A DNA stretch of 32,000 bases from Candidatus Borrarchaeum yapensis (GTDB lineage Archaea; Asgardarchaeota; Sifarchaeia; Borrarchaeales; Borrarchaeaceae), in contig JAEOSF010000013.1 in assembly GCA_016840515.1 (NCBI GenBank), positions 33,587 through 65,586 of the forward strand, in the 5' to 3' direction. Positions 6,562 to 29,912 of the stretch are shown here, piece by piece. The notes under the pieces are model-generated. The model saw only the letters and a program-made list of their open reading frames with translations. It was not told where the DNA came from and did not search any database. Both the position numbers and the translations under genes were made by a program. Each line of letters opens with the position of its first letter. Positions within the stretch are counted from its first letter, which is position 1.

Positions 6562-8067
6562 ATGGTATTATGGACGGAAAAGTACAGACCAATTACACTA
6601 GATCAAATCGCAGGCAATAAAAAAGCTGCAACTGATTTATTGAAGTGGTATGAGGAATGGACAGAAAAGCAAAAAATTGAAGAAAAGAAAAAGAAATCAG
6701 CAATCAAGTTTCCACTTCTTGTTGGACCTCCTGGTTCAGGAAAGACTTCAGCAGTTTATGCTTTAGCGAATACCTATGGGCTTGATGTAATTGAAGTGAA
6801 TGCAAGTGATAAAAGAGGGCAATCTCAAATTCAAGACATTGTAGGATTAGCAGCAACAGAAGGCTCACTTTACTCCGGAACTCGTCCTAAGAAAGTAATT
6901 TTGATCGATGAAGTAGATGGTGTCTCTGGTCGAGAAGATCGCGGAGGAATAGCTACTCTAATAAAGATATTCAAAGAAGCAAGAGTCCCTATTATTGCAA
7001 CGGCTAATGATCCATACAACCAAAGATTATCATCTTTTAGAAGATATTGTACAATTATTAAATTTCAACGTCTACGTGCAGCCAGTATAAAAAATGTTCT
7101 TAAGAAGATCTGCAAGAACGAAGCTGTTGTTGTTGACGATAGTATTTTACTAAAAATAGCAGAAAACTCCGGTGGTGATCTACGGTCGGCAATTAATGAT
7201 TTGCAGGCAATAGCTATGGATAAAAACGAACTTACTGAGAATGATTTGTCTACATTGACATCGAGGGATCACGAAACTGATATTTTTAACGCGTTGAAAG
7301 GTCTATTTTCTGCCAAAACTGTAAAGGATGCACGTATGTCAGTTAGAGATCTAGATATACGACCGGATATGCTTCTACTTTGGATCAATGAAAATGCAGC
7401 AAAACACGCCATAGAGCCTGAAATACTTGCACAGGTGTATGATGCAATTTCAAGGGCTGATCTTTTTAGGGCTAGAATACGCAAACGACAGCAATGGACT
7501 TTGCTGAAATACGTTTATAGCAATATGATAGAAGGCGTAGCAAATCCATTAAAGGGGCAGAGATATACCTATCAAAGATATGGATTTCCTACTTGGGTAT
7601 CGCAAATGAGCCGTACAAAAGAAGTTCGAGGAGCAACCGGAGAACTTGCTGCAACTATTGGAAAAAAATGCCATACTTCCAAAATGAGAGCAATAAAAGA
7701 TTACTTGCCTTTTATTAAATGGATGTTTACTGATCGAGAGATGTCAGCAAAACTTACTAAGTGGTTCAATTTTTCAGATGACGATCTTTCTTTGCTGACA
7801 GAAAAAAAGAACATAAAAGAAATAAAAAAAGAAATGGAAAAACTCAAACCTCCTCCAAAACCTGAAAAGCAAGTGAAGAAAGAAAAGAAAACAGAAAAAA
7901 CAAAAAAGGTAGAGAAAAAGAAAACTACCAAAGAGTCAAAGGAAAAGGTTGAAAAGGAATCCAAAAAAGTAACAAAAAAGGTTGTCAAAAAGGTAAAAAA
8001 GAAACTAGAGGAACCAAAAGAGAAAGAGGAGAAATCAGACCACACACGGTTAGATAAATGGTTTTGA
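6562..8067 (+). CDS. rfcL: Replication factor C large subunit (clamp loader), with Lys-rich tail and C-terminal PIP-like motif TRLDKWF
   Basis: N-terminal MVLWTEKYRPITLDQIAGNKKA, Walker A GPPGSGKTSAVYALA, Walker B LIDEVDGV, and domain order of archaeal RfcL. Confidence 0.93.
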   Translation: MVLWTEKYRPITLDQIAGNKKAATDLLKWYEEWTEKQKIEEKKKKSAIKFPLLVGPPGSGKTSAVYALANTYGLDVIEVNASDKRGQSQIQDIVGLAATEGSLYSGTRPKKVILIDEVDGVSGREDRGGIATLIKIFKEARVPIIATANDPYNQRLSSFRRYCTIIKFQRLRAASIKNVLKKICKNEAVVVDDSILLKIAENSGGDLRSAINDLQAIAMDKNELTENDLSTLTSRDHETDIFNALKGLFSAKTVKDARMSVRDLDIRPDMLLLWINENAAKHAIEPEILAQVYDAISRADLFRARIRKRQQWTLLKYVYSNMIEGVANPLKGQRYTYQRYGFPTWVSQMSRTKEVRGATGELAATIGKKCHTSKMRAIKDYLPFIKWMFTDREMSAKLTKWFNFSDDDLSLLTEKKNIKEIKKEMEKLKPPPKPEKQVKKEKKTEKTKKVEKKKTTKESKEKVEKESKKVTKKVVKKVKKKLEEPKEKEEKSDHTRLDKWF

Positions 8068-11351: not shown

Positions 11352-12020
11352 CTATAAAAGCTTAAGTTGATTTAGTAGTTGAAATGTATGCGTCTTTTTT
11401 TCGATTTCATATTTTTTGATAAGGGCAAGATCTTGAGAAGTATCAATATCAAGCATTAATTTTGGTGAATTAAATATAGTATATGAAACATGAAAATAGC
11501 GAGCGATTCTAGTATGAATTATGCTACTATTTGATCCATAATAAACATGTGGAATTACTTCTGGAGGTTTTCTTAACAAAATATTGGTACCGTTGTCTTT
11601 TGAAGGAGCGATTACGACCCATGGACGACTTATTGCCTTTTTAATAATAAGATCAAGAAGACGTGGTGTAATTAGAGGTATATCTCCAAGAATAACAATC
11701 ACACCCTCAGCACCCTGTTTTTCTAACTTGTGTGTCCCCTCAGAAACAGCAATATTTAATCCTTGCTCTTTTGCCTCAAGGATTGTGTTAGCACCTAATT
11801 TCTTCGCAAGTGTAACTATCTCCTGATCTGGTGACATTACAAAAGTTTCGGTAATATTCTCTGATTCTAAAGTTGATTGAACTACATCGGAGAGCATAGC
11901 TTTGGTGAGCATTTTTCGAGATTCAAGAGATAAATTGCTAATACGAGTTTTTGAATTCTCCAATTTCTTCAATGGAATAAGCGCATATATGTTCAAAACA
12001 TCACCGTTTACAGACGTCAA
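11352..12020 (-). CDS. cofC: 2-phospho-L-lactate guanylyltransferase (coenzyme F420 biosynthesis)
   Basis: ALIPLKKLENSKTRI, VILGDIPLITPRLLD, VIAPSKDNGTNILLRKPPEVIPHVYYGSNS, matching the CofC pattern. Confidence 0.8.
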   Translation of the reverse strand: MTSVNGDVLNIYALIPLKKLENSKTRISNLSLESRKMLTKAMLSDVVQSTLESENITETFVMSPDQEIVTLAKKLGANTILEAKEQGLNIAVSEGTHKLEKQGAEGVIVILGDIPLITPRLLDLIIKKAISRPWVVIAPSKDNGTNILLRKPPEVIPHVYYGSNSSIIHTRIARYFHVSYTIFNSPKLMLDIDTSQDLALIKKYEIEKKTHTFQLLNQLKLL

Positions 12021-12069
12021 AAGCTATTGTGATTTTTAGTCTTATTTAAATGACGAGGAAAGACATACG

Positions 12070-12077
12070 TTTATAAA
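12070..12077 (+). promoter_or_regulatory. TATA box for the IPMDH/IDH-like gene
   Basis: TTTATAAA about 40-50 nt upstream of the candidate starts 12114/12117/12123. Confidence 0.4.
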
Positions 12078-12113
12078 ACTTGCACTACCACTTTTAAGCT
12101 ATCATCAGTCGAT

Positions 12114-13139
12114 GTGATGATTATGACAAAGACATTTGAAATCGCCGTAATTTCAGGGGATGGAATTGGACCTGAGATAACTACTGCAACAAGCAAAGTG
12201 CTTGAAATATTATCAGATAAATATAATTTTTCCTTTCGGTTTAAGGAGATACTTGCAGGAGACAGAGCTCTAAAGGAAACTGGTCAAGCATTGCCCAGTA
12301 ATGCCATAGATGAAATTAAAAAGTGTTCATGTTGCTTAAAAGCGCCAATTGGTGAGTCAGCAAAATACGTAGTTTTACCCCTTAGACAAGAACTCAACCT
12401 CTTCGCAAACATCAGACCCGCAAAAACAATTCCTGGCATTCCAAGTATCCATTCAGGAGTTGACTTGGTAATTGTTAGGGAAAACACTGAGGGGCTCTAT
12501 AAGAAAATAGATGATATAACAAAAGAATGTGCGATTAATGTTCGAATGATCACAAAGGAAGCAACTGAGCGGATCATGACCGTTGCCTGCAAAATGGCAA
12601 GAGAACGGCAGAAAAAACTTACTATTGTCCATAAGGCTAATGTGATGATGAGTTGTGTATTCTTTCGAAATGTCTGTCTAGAAATTGCAAAGAATTTCAA
12701 TGATATTGACATAAATGAAATGTATGTAGACAACGCAGCATACCAACTGGTGATCAATCCTCAACAATTTGATACTCTAGTTACTACTAACATGTTTGGA
12801 GATATTCTAAGCGATGAAGCCGCAGGAGTCACTGGAAGTTTGGGGATTCTTCCTTCTTCAAACCTTGGACAGGATATTGCTATGTTTGAACCAGTCCATG
12901 GTGCGGCTTTCGATATTGAAGGAAAGGGTATAGCGAATCCTACTGCAATATTGTTAAGTTGCTCGATGATGCTAGATTGGCTAGGTGAAAAATATTCGAT
13001 AAGTGATGCAAAACAGGCAGCAAAAGACCTAGAAAACTCTATTTTAAAAATATATGAAGAAACCAACATTAGAACTCCAGATCTTGGCGGTAAAAATACT
13101 ACTAACGACTTCATAAGAGAGTTACTCTCCATATTTTAA
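12114..13139 (+). CDS. Isopropylmalate/isocitrate dehydrogenase family protein (start may be 12117 or 12123)
   Basis: VISGDGIGPEIT, NLFANIRPAKTIPGI, DLVIVRENTEGLY, NMFGDILSDEAAGVTGSLGILPSSNLG, FEPVHGAAFDIEGKGIANPTA. Confidence 0.9.
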   Translation: MMIMTKTFEIAVISGDGIGPEITTATSKVLEILSDKYNFSFRFKEILAGDRALKETGQALPSNAIDEIKKCSCCLKAPIGESAKYVVLPLRQELNLFANIRPAKTIPGIPSIHSGVDLVIVRENTEGLYKKIDDITKECAINVRMITKEATERIMTVACKMARERQKKLTIVHKANVMMSCVFFRNVCLEIAKNFNDIDINEMYVDNAAYQLVINPQQFDTLVTTNMFGDILSDEAAGVTGSLGILPSSNLGQDIAMFEPVHGAAFDIEGKGIANPTAILLSCSMMLDWLGEKYSISDAKQAAKDLENSILKIYEETNIRTPDLGGKNTTNDFIRELLSIF

Positions 13140-13206
13140 TTTCTTCCAAAAGATTTTTCTAGGTCTAAAGGTGAGATGACATAAGGACTAATGGTTATCT
13201 CACTTT

Positions 13207-13707
13207 TTGGAGTTGGGTATATTGGAAAAGGTTAGAATGCCAGAACTTGATAGGGTTGACCGGCCTAATTTAGGCGCAACAATAGACATTCGACTATTCA
13301 GAGCATTAAGTTTATTCAGCCTACGTGATGTCGTTGGAGAGGATGCATCAAAAACACTGGCTTATGCAGGTGGTAAGGCGTTGGGTAGGAGAACAAAATT
13401 TAAGGAATTCGAAGAATTTTTGCAGTGGATGGAAAAGAAAAGTATTGCAAGAACAAAATCATTTACATTTGATTCAGATAAAGGGATCGGAAATCTGATA
13501 TTGCTGGAGACCCTATCATCTGCAGGTCTTCCAAACCTAGGAAAGCCGGCATGCAGCTTTGAAACAGGACTTATTTCAGGTGTCATTGAACGATTAAAAG
13601 ACAGACGATGTCTTGTACGCGAGATCAGGTGCTATGGAAAAGGGGACCCTGAATGTGAATTCTACATAGAAGTACTTGATGTACCAGCATATTTGAAGAG
13701 AATGTAA
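13207..13707 (+). CDS. V4R (4-vinyl reductase) domain protein; probable true start at ATG 13237
   Basis: C-terminal pattern LVREIRCYGKGDPECEFYIEVL is typical of V4R domains. Internal start MPELDR. Confidence 0.7.
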   Translation: MELGILEKVRMPELDRVDRPNLGATIDIRLFRALSLFSLRDVVGEDASKTLAYAGGKALGRRTKFKEFEEFLQWMEKKSIARTKSFTFDSDKGIGNLILLETLSSAGLPNLGKPACSFETGLISGVIERLKDRRCLVREIRCYGKGDPECEFYIEVLDVPAYLKRM

Positions 13708-13884
13708 CGTTTTTTTATCTTTTTCCCTCTCAAAAACTGACATTATATTCAGAAAAAATGATTTTTGATCTGTAGTAGTTCGTTCACAACAATTGATTAC
13801 TCTAAGATGACGCAAATGAGTCTAAAAATTTTAGAAAAAGTCTTCAGCAATAAAACGTGGAATTACATCAACCATTCCACTGTT

Positions 13885-14658
13885 TTATAAATAATTGTAA
13901 GGTTTCATTGTAGCCTTCCCAATTTTCCCAACTATTTCAGGATTTTTTATAGCAGCCCTAGCAATTGAAAATGCATCGGCACCGGCGTTCAGCATTTGTA
14001 GTGCTGAATTAATGTCTTTTACAGAATTATTACCTATCAAAAATGTATCGACAGAGTTGGATATCCTTTTTATAACGTCTAAGTCAGCATAAGGAGATCC
14101 AGGTTTCATTGCATCGACATGAATAGCATCTGCACCTGCTGTAACCATATTTTTCACTAAAGTCACTTCATCAACGATGTTGGCCCGAATTTTAACAATT
14201 AGGGGAATATTCACATTATTTTTGAGGATTGTAATCCACTGACACAATTTTTTGGAGTTTTTTAGGAGTGCCTGTCCAGTTCCTAGATCCATAATTTCTG
14301 GTTGTCTACAATGTGCATTTAGTTCAATAGCATCCGCACCTGCATCCTGTGATATTTTTGCTGCCAGAAGTAACCCATCTCTTGAGGTAACACGTATATT
14401 TATATTTACGAGAGTTTTTCCTTCACGGGCAATAGAAACTTGACGTTCAGTATATTCTGGCAGTTCCTCAAGATCTATAATAAATTCTGGCCTTTCTCTA
14501 GTTGTGATAAGTTTTGCTGCGCTAAGCGTTGCCTTATCAAAATTAAATCCGCCAAGAGTAATCATGCCAGCTCCACCTTTCGCAACTCGTGCACAAAAAT
14601 CACCATTAGTAACGCCCGCTATTGCGGATAGTATTGCTGGATTTTGCAACTTTAACAT
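13885..14658 (-). CDS. TIM-barrel flavoprotein-like protein (dihydrouridine synthase / dihydroorotate dehydrogenase-like), coupled to cofD
   Basis: ITLGGFNFD, ADAIELNAHCRQPEI, VKIRANIVDE, AGADAIHVDAMKPG, FLIGNNSV, AGADAFSIARA; overlaps the 3' end of cofD. Confidence 0.65.
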   Translation of the reverse strand: MLKLQNPAILSAIAGVTNGDFCARVAKGGAGMITLGGFNFDKATLSAAKLITTRERPEFIIDLEELPEYTERQVSIAREGKTLVNINIRVTSRDGLLLAAKISQDAGADAIELNAHCRQPEIMDLGTGQALLKNSKKLCQWITILKNNVNIPLIVKIRANIVDEVTLVKNMVTAGADAIHVDAMKPGSPYADLDVIKRISNSVDTFLIGNNSVKDINSALQMLNAGADAFSIARAAIKNPEIVGKIGKATMKPYNYL

Positions 14659-15509
14659 GTTTTTTCCTCAATTAAACGAAGGATTTCTTGAGCAAGATTG
14701 ATTTTATCATCAAGACTCTTCATTATGATATTAGTAGAAAACACAGATATTCCTAGTTCTTCAATTTGAGGAACCAATCCCGTATCAGTACTATGTATAA
14801 TTAGAACGTCTAAGAAGTTAGAATAGATCTTTGCAATAGCGTACGGAGAAACACTAAGGTTTTGGGTTTCCATGAGTTGACCAGCAGGGCCGCTCAATGG
14901 TTGTTCTCCGATTATGGGGGAAATCGCGATTTTCATGCCTTGTGTCCTTTCTAAGGCAGTTTTGATACCTTTTACTTCCAGGATAGGTCCTATTGAGGTC
15001 ACAGGATTACTTGGTCCGATAATTATGGCATCACTTTCCATAATTGAATCAATTACATCTGGGGTTGGTTCTGCTTTCTTAATTCCTTCAAATTCAACCG
15101 AAAATACCTTTACATTTGCATGTTCCCTTACCCAAAACTCCTGAAAATTCAATTTACCCTTGTCAGTAAAAACCATTGTTGTGACTTTTTGGTCAGTCAT
15201 GGGAATTATTTGAGGCTTTATATTCAAGCGCATGCAGACATCATTGATAATTTCAGATAAAGAAAGACCTTCTTTTAATAAACGCGTCCTATGGATATGA
15301 AGTGCGAGATCACGATCCCCTAATTGAAACCATGGATCATAACCATACAGTTTTAACATATCAAGGCAATTATAAGTGTCGCCTTTTATTCCCCACCATT
15401 TTTCTTCATCTAAAAAACTTTTTAGGCAGTAGAGGACAGAATCAATGTCTGGGCAGACATAAAGACCATAAAAATAGTAATCATCTGCAGTATTACAAAT
15501 TATAGTCAA
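14652..15509 (-). CDS. cofD: 2-phospho-L-lactate transferase (coenzyme F420 biosynthesis)
   Basis: GDRDLALHIHRTRLLKEGLSLSEI, IIGPSNPVTSIGPILEVKGIK, IAISPIIGEQPLSGPAGQLM are CofD hallmarks. Confidence 0.9.
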   Translation of the reverse strand: MTIICNTADDYYFYGLYVCPDIDSVLYCLKSFLDEEKWWGIKGDTYNCLDMLKLYGYDPWFQLGDRDLALHIHRTRLLKEGLSLSEIINDVCMRLNIKPQIIPMTDQKVTTMVFTDKGKLNFQEFWVREHANVKVFSVEFEGIKKAEPTPDVIDSIMESDAIIIGPSNPVTSIGPILEVKGIKTALERTQGMKIAISPIIGEQPLSGPAGQLMETQNLSVSPYAIAKIYSNFLDVLIIHSTDTGLVPQIEELGISVFSTNIIMKSLDDKINLAQEILRLIEEKTC

Positions 15510-15645
15510 ATTTTCCTCAGAAACAAGCCTTACAAGACCTTGCAGTAATTTTGGAGTACCAGTCCCTCCACTTAACAGCGTAATGCGAATTACTGCGCAC
15601 CTCCTAATAATAACAAAACAATAATCCGCGGAAATGTAAAAAAGA

Positions 15646-16215
15646 CTATTCTACAACGACTCGATAGACGATATGTAAACCTGCAGTAGGGCTTTCTCGA
15701 TATATTTTTACTATTCGTCCAGGTTTTGCCCCTATAGCTTTTGCTGCGGGATCCGCGGCTTGAATTGCAGGAAGTTGAAATTTGTTAATGTTATAGTGTT
15801 TTAAAACTTCATTCGCTTCCTTTTCAGATAATAATTCATGTTTTGGAACAAGAACATGCTCAAAAATATTAAAAATAGGATACTTTGTTGGAAGCAATTC
15901 AATATTCTTCTTTTTTGATTCAGCCTTTGCGGCTGGCGTATATCTTTCTAAAGTTGCAAGTAGCGCCTGATCTACACCATGTTTTTTCATTGCTTTATCT
16001 AATGCTCGTACTAATGCAACACCGACAACATTTTTGCTAGGAATGCGAACTAAAAACTTTAGTTCTTCTTTATCCTCTTTCTTTTTTGCGAGGATATCGA
16101 TTTCTGACTCTTGCTCTTCAATCGATTCGACTTTATATTTTCTATTTTCAAGCAGTTGTAATACTCCTTCTTTCACACGTTTCATCGTTTGACTCAAGGC
16201 CAGCGCCTCCCTCAA
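15646..16215 (-). CDS. rpoH: DNA-directed RNA polymerase subunit H / Rpb5 with additional N-terminal domain
   Basis: C-terminal EHVLVPKHELLSEKEANEVLKHYNINKFQLPAIQAADPAAKAIGAKPGRIVKIYRESPTAGLHIVYRVVVE is classical RpoH/Rpb5. The ~110 aa N-terminal extension resembles the eukaryotic Rpb5 jaw domain. Confidence 0.92.
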   Translation of the reverse strand: MREALALSQTMKRVKEGVLQLLENRKYKVESIEEQESEIDILAKKKEDKEELKFLVRIPSKNVVGVALVRALDKAMKKHGVDQALLATLERYTPAAKAESKKKNIELLPTKYPIFNIFEHVLVPKHELLSEKEANEVLKHYNINKFQLPAIQAADPAAKAIGAKPGRIVKIYRESPTAGLHIVYRVVVE

Positions 16216-16231
16216 AACTCAAATGTATTTA

Positions 16232-16243
16232 TTTTTTATAAAT
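16232..16243 (-). promoter_or_regulatory. Putative TATA box for rpoH (nearly leaderless arrangement)
   Basis: Reverse-strand ATTTATAAAAAA about 20-25 nt upstream of the 16215 start. Confidence 0.4.
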
Positions 16244-28556: not shown

Positions 28557-29912
28557 TTGGAGTCCTATGATGTTTCTCTTAAGTTAATAAACTATGATCT
28601 TATTCTTCAACCTCATGTTTTTCTCGATGTAACCCCTATACAACATCTGTTAGAATATGATGCAAAATTCAAAAATTTTAAAGCACTACCTATGTTTTTT
28701 CCAGAGATTGTGCAATTTCTTACTTCAAGATATGTCGTGAAAATCGATTTTACTTATGGAGAAAAACTTAGTTTTGAAACGGTGCCAAGTTACTCTCTAC
28801 GTCCTTATCAAGAAGATGCACTAAGTGAATGGATCAAAAATGATTATAGAGGTATAATTTGCCTTCCTACAGGTACTGGAAAGACATTCTTGGGTCTGAC
28901 AGCAATTCATCAAACGAAAAACAGAACATTAATCATCGTTCCGACTATTAATCTTTTGCACCAGTGGCGTTGTAACGTTATTGAAGGATTAGACATATCT
29001 AAGGAAAAAATAGGCATTTGGGGAGGAGGAAAGCAAGAATTAAATGAAATTACAATTACAACATATGATTCAGCTCACATTTACATAAAACGATTTCAAA
29101 ACGCTTTTAACCTTCTTATTTTCGATGAAGTACATCATCTCCCTGCTCCAACTTATCGCGTAATTGCAGAAGGGACAATTGCTTCAAAAAGGTTAGGATT
29201 GAGTGCAACCCCGGAAAGAAGCGATGAATTACATCGAGATCTTGATATTCTTGTTGGAAAAGTCGTTTATCGACTTGAGCATGAAAAATTAGTGGATGAT
29301 GGGTACGTTGCGCCTTTTGAGTTAAAAACAATAACAATAGAACTAGCAGAAGATGAAAAAAGAAGATATGATGCTTTAGACAAAGTTTATCAAGATTATG
29401 TTAAAAAATACCATGTTTTTGATTTTGAGAAATTAGTTTTGCGATCTGGGCGTGACAAAAAGGCAAGGAATGCTTTACTAGCACGCCAAGAGGCCAGAAA
29501 GATTTCATTTGGCAGTGGAAGAAAATTGGATGTACTTGAAGAACTCTTGATACAGCATCAGCAGGATAGAGTAATTATCTTTTGTGAATTCAACGAGATA
29601 GTGCACGAGATAGCAAAGAGGTTTCTTATCCCCGAAATCACACACAAAACCAAGTATGAAGAACGAAAAACATATTTGGAGAGTTTTAAAAACGGTCAGT
29701 ACTCTAAACTTGTTACAGGACGCGTGTTGGATGAAGGGTGGGATGTTGATGCCAACATAGGCATAATCATTAGCGGTTCAGGTTCAAAAAGACAGTTTAT
29801 TCAGAGGCTAGGTAGAATTTTACGACCTTCTGACACACATTTGAAGGCAATCCTATATGAACTTGTTACAAAGGAAACACTTGAAGTTTCAACCGCATCC
29901 CGAAGGAAATAA
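28557..29912 (+). CDS. XPB-like SF2 DNA helicase
   Basis: LRPYQEDALSEW, ICLPTGTGKTFLG, LLIFDEVHHLPAPTY, LGLSATPERSD, VTGRVLDEGWDVDANIGIIISGSGSKRQFIQRLGRILRP. Confidence 0.88.
   Translation: MESYDVSLKLINYDLILQPHVFLDVTPIQHLLEYDAKFKNFKALPMFFPEIVQFLTSRYVVKIDFTYGEKLSFETVPSYSLRPYQEDALSEWIKNDYRGIICLPTGTGKTFLGLTAIHQTKNRTLIIVPTINLLHQWRCNVIEGLDISKEKIGIWGGGKQELNEITITTYDSAHIYIKRFQNAFNLLIFDEVHHLPAPTYRVIAEGTIASKRLGLSATPERSDELHRDLDILVGKVVYRLEHEKLVDDGYVAPFELKTITIELAEDEKRRYDALDKVYQDYVKKYHVFDFEKLVLRSGRDKKARNALLARQEARKISFGSGRKLDVLEELLIQHQQDRVIIFCEFNEIVHEIAKRFLIPEITHKTKYEERKTYLESFKNGQYSKLVTGRVLDEGWDVDANIGIIISGSGSKRQFIQRLGRILRPSDTHLKAILYELVTKETLEVSTASRRK

Follow-up and report, generated by a model that had tools for sequence, protein, structure and literature searches.

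The 32-kb stretch of DNA analysed here (hereafter the window), from contig JAEOSF010000013.1 of Candidatus Borrarchaeum yapensis, carries on its minus strand an rpoH (rpo5) gene which very probably encodes a long form, with two domains, of the RNA polymerase subunit Rpo5 (RpoH) from an Asgard archaeon of the Sifarchaeia/Borrarchaeum type. The C-terminal domain is that of canonical archaeal RpoH, and the additional N-terminal domain (N-domain) is, on the evidence of sequence profiles and a predicted model, the archaeal counterpart of the jaw domain of eukaryotic Rpb5, in a compact version without the helical insertion that follows helix 1 in eukaryotes. The reading favoured here, with a probability of about 0.7, is that the jaw is an archaeal invention: before Asgard and eukaryotes parted, an archaeal RpoH would have been joined to a dead Mrr domain, and the first eukaryote would have inherited a two-domain Rpb5. 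The parts of the gene on which the argument rests are as follows.

15646..16215, minus strand: maximal open reading frame (ORF) of the long-form rpoH/rpo5, 189 codons plus stop, TTG start, from the ORF listing
15649..15879, minus strand: canonical RpoH/Rpo5 assembly domain, residues 113-189, from PF01191, NF007129, PDB and fold matches
15880..16185, minus strand: predicted N-terminal domain, residues 11-112, inactivated Mrr-type PD-(D/E)XK fold, from Pfam, PDB profile, AlphaFold2/Foldseek and hhalign comparisons
16096..16098, minus strand: codon of Asp40, a remnant of the former nuclease motif (its first acidic residue), from its column in a joint alignment

The C-terminal domain

Residues 115-189 match the Pfam family RNA_pol_Rpb5_C (PF01191) with an E-value of 1.7e-30 and 105 bits, against a cut-off of 23.5, and the NCBIfam RpoH equivalog model NF007129 is matched with 106.5 bits, against a cut-off of 83. 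With both scores above threshold, the last 77 residues belong to the family of canonical archaeal RpoH, known from Thermococcus, Pyrococcus, Sulfolobus, and Methanocaldococcus. RpoH of T. kodakarensis (4qiw_H) was matched with 88.7 bits over 75 amino acids, and in a Foldseek comparison the predicted model aligned with 8cro_H and 4qiw_H over 75 columns with a template modelling (TM) score (target) of 0.84-0.85, the proteins of P. furiosus and T. kodakarensis being 59-60% identical to the window C-domain in this fold alignment. The C-terminal domain is universal in archaea and eukaryotes and docks the subunit on the largest polymerase subunit.

A model that had read the window from its letters alone (the sequence-only reading) put canonical archaeal RpoH at about 80 amino acids, in agreement with the solved chains from the four genera named above, which are 74-84 amino acids long and have no N-domain. 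Because these chains are so short, the N-terminal extension of about 110 amino acids can be regarded as real; what the window gene adds to the canonical subunit is an N-domain of about 100 amino acids.

Kinship of the N-terminal domain with the Rpb5 jaw

The N-domain was tested apart from the strongly scoring C-domain. With the N-domain alone, the Pfam models Mrr_cat and NA-iREase1 were matched at E-values of 1.7e-13 and 5.9e-10, respectively; with the full protein, Mrr_cat (PF04471) covered residues 12-108 (3.1e-13, 50.3 bits against a threshold of 21) and NA-iREase1 (PF22722) was matched at 2e-9 (37.8 bits against 27), so that the domain lies above the gathering threshold for both. All 21 archaeal N-domains compared also match Mrr_cat. 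The window N-domain is basic, with an isoelectric point of 9.5.

The relation to eukaryotic Rpb5 is seen at several levels. In a phmmer search, residues 35-188 were colinear with Arabidopsis NRPB5 and human RPABC1. A profile built from the 21 archaeal N-domains was searched against 177,635 PDB sequences, and the first seven matches were eukaryotic Rpb5 (E-values from 1.2e-6 to 3.8e-5, about residues 53-117 of Rpb5); no nuclease or restriction enzyme scored as well as an E-value of 1, and two XPBII helicase chains followed at 1.4 and 2.5. Among 1.84 billion representative proteins this profile retrieved a metazoan Rpb5 at an E-value of 1.1e-5 over the same residues.

Since the domains are 75-100 residues long and the archaeal N-domain is only about 20% identical to that of eukaryotic Rpb5, kinship was judged by profile-profile scores. 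In hhalign comparisons, in which eukaryotes were represented by Rpb5 of human, yeast, and Arabidopsis (each sequence 100% identical to a PDB chain), the eukaryotic Rpb5_N domain aligned with the Asgard RpoH N-domains with a probability of 98% and an E-value of 1.5e-13 over 100 columns, with the N-domains of Bathyarchaeia at 1.1e-7 over 53 columns, and with free Mrr domains at 1.8e-7 over 71 columns. The Asgard and Bathyarchaeia N-domains matched each other at 5.8e-25, and archaeal RpoH N-domains matched free Mrr domains at 7e-21. The likeness between the N-domain and Rpb5 is beyond chance. The sequence-only reading had aligned the N-terminal 110 or so amino acids with the human Rpb5 jaw by eye, and both of its alignments were recovered by hhalign, in which KRVKEGVLQLLENRKYKVE is paired with WKIRKTIMQLCHDRGYLVT and VGVALVRALDKAMKKHGVDQALLATLERYTPAAK with a 34-residue stretch of eukaryotic Rpb5.

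Comparison of folds leads in the same direction. AlphaFold2, run with templates off and with archaeal sequences alone in the alignment, gave models with predicted local distance difference test scores (pLDDT) of 81.5 (full protein) and 89 (N-domain). With the full model, Foldseek placed 34 eukaryotic Rpb5 chains ahead of short archaeal RpoH, over 205-220 columns and with an E-value of 2e-14. With the N-domain alone, Rpb5 came first (6exv_E, root-mean-square deviation (rmsd) of 1.9 A over 75 columns), followed by the Mrr-type nucleases MspJI, AF1548, and AspBHI; the predicted domain is seen to have both the nuclease fold and the kinship with Rpb5 for which the sequence-only reading had proposed an AlphaFold/Foldseek check.

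Eukaryotic Rpb5/RPABC1 (PF03871 followed by PF01191), common to RNA polymerases (Pol) I, II, and III, has the same order of two domains as the archaeal form and is colinear with it over the 205-220 columns mentioned. The two N-domains share a PD-(D/E)XK-derived fold, and that of Rpb5 is the best PDB match of the archaeal one by both sequence and fold. Common to both are a long N-terminal helix, in which the Arg of the (D)RGY motif is conserved, the motifs VG(V/I) and T-P/x-x-A-K, and the loss of the catalytic QxK. They differ in that the archaeal form is about 25 residues shorter and lacks the helical insertion that in eukaryotes separates helix 1 from the sheet.

Remnants of a nuclease motif

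The state of the nuclease motif was read from a joint alignment of N-domains from 21 free Mrr proteins, 18 Asgard long forms, and 20 Bathyarchaeia long forms. The motif Asp is present in 18/21 free Mrr domains and 15/18 Asgard domains (D40 in the window protein), and is mostly gone in Bathyarchaeia; in the hhalign alignment human TD-L and Arabidopsis ED-L stand at the place equivalent to Asp40. The Gln of QxK, found in 14/21 free Mrr domains, is replaced by a hydrophobic residue or Arg in Asgard and mostly by Trp in Bathyarchaeia. The Lys of QxK, also present in 14/21 free Mrr domains, is absent from all 18 Asgard and all 20 Bathyarchaeia domains. In contrast to the catalytic (Q/E)xK of Mrr nucleases, the window N-domain reads V56-R57-I58, and the Glu that these nucleases have in helix 1 is missing from it. 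As the catalytic QxK is lost, the N-domain is predicted to be an inactivated nuclease fold.

A Pro following strand 3 occurs in 13/18 Asgard (P59 in the window protein) and 15/20 Bathyarchaeia domains and as P77 in human Rpb5, whereas free Mrr domains have Arg there. By this alignment, the loss of QxK and the post-strand-3 Pro are derived characters common to the N-domain and the eukaryotic jaw. Arg25, invariant across all long forms, is equivalent to R26 of the DRGY motif of yeast Rpb5, an invariant motif in which the substitution R26E is lethal (PMC1802627). Free Mrr domains, too, often carry this motif, which hence appears to have been inherited and not newly evolved.

The partners of Mrr and NA-iREase1 domains are DNA-recognition, helicase, or NACHT modules, whereas the partner in the window protein is a subunit of RNA polymerase. 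Despite the match to the NA-iREase1 model, no NACHT was found in the window protein or its neighbours, and Rpb5_C is the sole partner domain. An active nuclease or a NACHT-type conflict system was rejected, given the absence of the catalytic Lys and of NACHT.

Distribution and gene order

A scan of a genome collection with peptide words of the window protein returned three close relatives. With an ORF of Candidatus Borrarchaeum weybense (L001), where the gene order is kept, the window protein shares 96% identity, and with an ORF of a Promethearchaeota metagenome-assembled genome (L002) 94%; it also matches Candidatus Sifarchaeum. By the 96% identity and the conserved gene order the contig is Asgard, an origin that the sequence-only reading had left to be checked.

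The survey of archaea proposed in the same reading places the long form in several Asgard groups and in Bathyarchaeia. Protein searches gave 61 close clusters, all but two of them with both domains. In a second search, 663 more distant clusters, counted for Bathyarchaeia, were found at E<=1e-3, and the best 120 of the 663 were all of the two-domain type; at the 50% identity level, 38 two-domain clusters were counted among the best 150 matches. Under the names given in the sources, the long form has 188 amino acids in Heimdallarchaeota, 189 in Hodarchaeales, and 190 in Helarchaeota. Read directly off the DNA, it has 180 amino acids in a complete 4.9-Mb Heimdall genome, 197 in a Hodarchaeota genome, and 191 in a Wukongarchaeota genome. 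Long forms are present in large numbers in Bathyarchaeia. The extension is not universal in archaeal RpoH, whereas universal presence would have counted as a refutation in the sequence-only reading: the solved euryarchaeal and crenarchaeal chains are short, as is the rpoH of a DPANN control genome, whose product of 103 amino acids has an ATG start with no room for an upstream extension, and rpoB directly downstream.

In archaea rpoH usually lies directly upstream of rpoB, and in Asgard archaea a conserved core rpoA1-rpoA2-L30e-nusA-S12 has been described of which rpoH and rpoB are not part (PMC10833476). The window rpoH had been described as detached from rpoB, and indeed none of the RNA polymerase genes other than rpoH is found within the 32 kb. 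Instead of rpoB, the neighbour in the canonical arrangement (PMC10833476) and in the DPANN control, the window rpoH adjoins cofD. The order rpoH then cofD recurs in the loci of Borrarchaeum, Heimdall, Hod, and Wukong. After cofD come dus-like and cofC genes in the window and in the Borrarchaeum, Heimdall, and Hod loci, while the Wukong contig ends after cofD. The syntenic spans are 11352-16215 in the window, 752-3676 in L005, 3659-6725 in L009, and 3674-5189 in L007. As the rpoH-cofD synteny is kept, it argues for a single orthologous locus of the long rpoH across Asgard classes. The cof genes belong to the F420-type cofactor, and no functional reason was found for their linkage to a polymerase subunit.

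Origin and role of the two-domain subunit

The sequence-only reading had left a choice between a two-domain Rpb5 older than eukaryotes and an independent fusion of an Mrr-like domain. The fold, the profile comparison, the Asgard origin of the contig, and the survey favour the former, and the best reading of these data is that the two-domain Rpb5 arose in archaea and was inherited by eukaryotes, in which the N-domain would have diverged further. The direction from archaea to eukaryotes is preferred because the N-domain of archaea has remained a good Mrr_cat domain while the eukaryotic one is more diverged and has gained a helical insertion, because the C-domain is archaeal by a curated equivalog model, and because the Asgard locus is syntenic across classes. 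The fusion may be older still, having occurred before the split of Asgard and TACK, in their common ancestor. The long form of Bathyarchaeia would reflect either such an older fusion, lost in Thermoprotei and others, or a transfer between the groups.

Several observations weigh against archaeal descent of the jaw. In Pfam terms the N-domain is classed as Mrr_cat and not as Rpb5_N: the Rpb5_N model (PF03871) stays below threshold for the window N-domain (14.7 bits against 27, E-value 0.049), and only one of the 21 archaeal N-domains matches it at all. In the search of 1.84 billion representative proteins, free Mrr proteins outscore eukaryotic Rpb5 (e.g., 1.5e-14 against 1.1e-5), which makes the link to Rpb5 more distant than that to Mrr. 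The orientation of the two domains in the model is unlike that in Rpb5, with an overall rmsd of about 13 A and a linker pLDDT below 50. The taxon names are submitters' labels on metagenome-assembled genomes. Among the long forms recovered, the sole Thorarchaeota label is that of one member of a Hodarchaeales cluster, and none bears the label of Lokiarchaeota (Helarchaeota aside) or Odinarchaeota.

The rival that survives best, although it is unlikely, is a convergent fusion, in which an Mrr-like domain joined RpoH twice, once in archaea and once in the stem of eukaryotes, which would make the archaeal N-domain an analogue of the jaw and not its ancestor. The contrast between the good Mrr_cat match and the sub-threshold one to Rpb5_N, and the rank of free Mrr proteins above eukaryotic Rpb5 among representative proteins, are what such a history would leave; moreover, Mrr domains are mobile and frequently fused to other domains, and archaeal variants with two or three tandem N-domains indicate that the domain can be duplicated or added. 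Against it stand the identical domain order and colinear junction in the archaeal and eukaryotic forms, the sharing of the QxK loss and of the post-strand-3 Pro, and the position of Rpb5 at the top of the PDB for the N-domain by sequence and by fold. In hhalign, Rpb5_N also scores much better and over more columns with the Asgard N-domains than with free Mrr domains. Finally, the long form occurs in the archaeal group in which eukaryotes are presumed to have originated, Hodarchaeales included.

A different objection concerns the role of the protein in the cell. The long RpoH might be a specialised paralogue, an extra RpoH-like factor or a tethered active nuclease existing beside a short RpoH encoded next to rpoB. 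It is true that the long rpoH does not adjoin rpoB in the window or in the Bathyarchaeia and Heimdall loci, that Asp40 of the nuclease motif is kept, and that in one Bathyarchaeota genome the accession of Rpo5 is two numbers from that of Rpo1, which suggests a copy in the operon (PMC13257274). Yet in five out of five genomes in which the annotated RpoH was looked up, the complete 4.9-Mb Heimdall genome among them, it proved to be the long gene in truncated form, the reported Asgard core contains neither rpoH nor rpoB (PMC10833476), and the QxK lysine is missing from every Asgard and Bathyarchaeia domain aligned. A paralogue is thus quite improbable, and the best-supported reading of the sequences is that the long RpoH would be the Rpo5 of the cell.

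It is even less probable that an Rpb5 of eukaryotic or giant-virus origin replaced a short rpoH in some archaea by horizontal transfer. The distribution among archaea is patchy, and two archaeal long forms (P0009 and P0058) bear the eukaryotic name RPABC1 at JGI; nevertheless, the C-domain passes the archaeal RpoH equivalog model and is as close to Thermococcus RpoH, by the 75-amino-acid match of 88.7 bits, as to plant or human Rpb5. Compared with the eukaryotic jaw, the N-domain stands closer to prokaryotic Mrr, and it has no helical insertion of the eukaryotic kind. In addition, at least 30 two-domain clusters at 50% identity are spread over Asgard and Bathyarchaeia, and the rpoH-cofD synteny is kept across Asgard classes.

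If archaeal descent is correct, the jaw of Rpb5 is traced to archaea, in lineages relevant to the origin of eukaryotes (Hodarchaeales, Heimdall, Sif/Borr), and acquires a concrete source, an inactivated Mrr-type restriction endonuclease; its function becomes approachable in an archaeon with a single polymerase, a simpler system. Another subunit, Rpb8, was reportedly traced to archaea in 2007. In the literature the jaw has been called eukaryote-specific, or archaeal RpoH described as having no jaw, from 2007 to 2024 (PMC1802627, 2007; PMC2675907, 2009; PMC3906176, 2014; PMC10881513, 2024), and Rpb5_N was given as confined to Eukaryota (PMC3424549, 2012). In a review of 2018, Rpo8 is the one archaeo-eukaryotic subunit said to be patchily distributed (PMC7289017), and a 2026 survey of the evolution of small subunits covers long Rpo6 and not long Rpo5 (PMC13257274). 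Neither Rpb5 nor RpoH is mentioned in the supplements of Eme et al. 2023 or in the preprint of Liu et al., and no prior description of a long archaeal Rpo5 was found in the searchable full-text literature, a scope outside which most subscription papers lie.

The Rpb5 jaw makes up the lower jaw of Pol II, where cross-links tie it to downstream DNA some 15 nt in front of the bubble (PMC1802627). By analogy with Pol II alone (PMC1802627, PMC2675907), we infer that the archaeal N-domain would sit at the position of the jaw, facing and contacting downstream DNA or docking factors. The long subunit would be part of the polymerase, and its N-domain would have reached eukaryotes by vertical descent. 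The partners of the eukaryotic jaw, TFIIB, RAP30 of TFIIF, HBx, and others (PMC13257274), cannot be assumed for the archaeon, since it has a single polymerase. In Sulfolobales and Desulfurococcales the subunit Rpo13 sits beside Rpo5, at a place partly filled by the jaw of eukaryotic Rpb5 (PMC2675907). Rpo13 may be a functional analogue of the jaw N-domain, as an extra lower-jaw module facing downstream DNA; unlike the latter, it is a separate helix-turn-helix subunit, unrelated to the N-domain of long RpoH in sequence and fold.

Truncation in deposited annotation

A profile search with the C-domain retrieved many NCBI products of only 76-115 amino acids from Bathyarchaeia, Heimdall, Hod, Wukong, and Borrarchaeum. 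Five such records, Asgard and Bathyarchaeia-like, with annotated products of 80-86 amino acids, were checked on the DNA, and all five were found to be the tails of uninterrupted ORFs of 180-197 amino acids, each with a canonical GTG or TTG as its upstream start. The truncated genes are the following.

L006 5001-5243 (CP070695.1): truncated rpoH
L007 4001-4249 (JAUQYU020000173.1): truncated rpoH
L008 4001-4258 (JAVZNC010000001.1): truncated rpoH
L009 4001-4252 (JBHLKG010000055.1): truncated rpoH
L010 3001-3261 (JAVQTO010000007.1): truncated rpoH

Four of the annotated start codons were read, and they are ATA, ATA, ATT, and ATT. The 76-amino-acid Borrarchaeum product corresponds to the C-terminus of the ORF in L001, and its first residue lies at the place of codon 114 (ATT) in the window gene; we infer that it is truncated as well. 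The deposited annotation looks as if rpoH were systematically trimmed to the length of the RpoH family model, and because of this trimming the jaw domain is left in apparently non-coding DNA. Family-model-guided trimming to 80 amino acids at ATA or ATT is part of the reason why the long form stayed hidden, and the truncation would bias surveys of eukaryotic signature proteins that are built on deposited proteomes. Gene calls of JGI, ENA, and Logan give the long product. The name under which JGI lists its two long forms reads in full "DNA-directed RNA polymerase I, II, and III subunit RPABC1"; with this name automated annotation had already sensed the eukaryote-like architecture.

In the N-domain, 12 synonymous and 8 nonsynonymous codon changes separate the window from its 94%-identical Promethearchaeota relative (L002), a pattern consistent with a translated region under purifying selection. 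That the deposited annotation is right, and only the C-terminal part of about 80 amino acids is translated from an internal ATT or ATA, is hardly credible: NCBI does list products of 76-86 amino acids for Borrarchaeum, Heimdall, Hod, Wukong, and Bathyarchaeia, and P0387 has AAGGAGG about 20 nt upstream of its annotated start, but the long ORF with an upstream GTG or TTG is uninterrupted at all five loci, the four starts read are rare codons, three of these four have no Shine-Dalgarno-like motif within 30 nt upstream, the part preceding them is conserved from Asgard to Bathyarchaeia, with a pLDDT of 89 and an excess of synonymous changes, and the JGI, ENA, and Logan calls give the long product.

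Start of the gene and upstream signals

The position of the gene and its 189-amino-acid ORF at 15646-16215 had been given exactly in the sequence-only reading, and the ORF is on the minus strand; the start assumed there is likely to be too far upstream. Homologues do not share the first ten residues of the mechanical ORF: their conservation sets in at about residue 9-11, and the homologue P0008 begins MKRVKEG. The real product has probably 179-183 amino acids, with the same domain content as the 189-amino-acid ORF. The signals considered are listed below.

16195..16197, minus strand: probable true start codon TTG, giving 183 amino acids, suggested by GGAGG 8 nt upstream and by conservation among homologues
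16183..16185, minus strand: alternative start codon ATG, giving 179 amino acids, read off the sequence
16206..16210, minus strand: putative Shine-Dalgarno-like GGAGG, read off the sequence
16231..16242, minus strand: putative archaeal promoter element TTTATAAAAAAT, resembling a TATA box and lying some 25-30 nt before the start region, read off the sequence

Variant architectures

Apart from the standard long form, several unusual proteins were encountered among the homologues. Two to three tandem dead Mrr-like domains precede Rpb5_C in P0201 (481 amino acids), P0217 (436 amino acids), and P0245 (293 amino acids), while P0238 (222 amino acids) has only an N-terminal extension. P0201 and its cluster-mate P0495 are named "RpoH/Rpb5 C-terminal domain-containing protein" at NCBI. 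In P0313 (561 amino acids), a long RpoH, some 400 residues, a Cpn60/TCP-1 (thermosome-like) segment among them, split the C-domain, which may reflect a genuine insertion, chimerism, or misassembly. Two eukaryote-like Rpb5 models, P0220 (456 amino acids) and P0283 (235 amino acids), have duplicated or triplicated jaw domains and are probably artefacts of assembly or gene modelling, or else tandem duplications.

Other features of the window

The 32-kb window contains no tRNA genes and no Rfam family at the gathering threshold, and a reading of the locus as an RNA gene was dropped. Its G+C content lies between 31 and 42% across 2-kb windows. The cofD ORF adjoining rpoH was listed at 14652..15509 on the minus strand, although the conserved N-terminus of CofD (IRITLLSGGTGTPKLLQGL) is found in frame at 15510-15600, before the first ATG, GTG, or TTG. 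No canonical start precedes IRITLLSGGTGTPKLLQGL, and AGGAGG is followed about 9 nt on by ATT, which suggests either that cofD uses a genuine rare ATT start or that there is a sequencing error. Further away, at 6562-8067 and 28557-29912, the window encodes two more proteins of information processing, a clamp-loader large subunit (with a match to the C-terminal domain of RFC1) and an XPB/ERCC3-type helicase.

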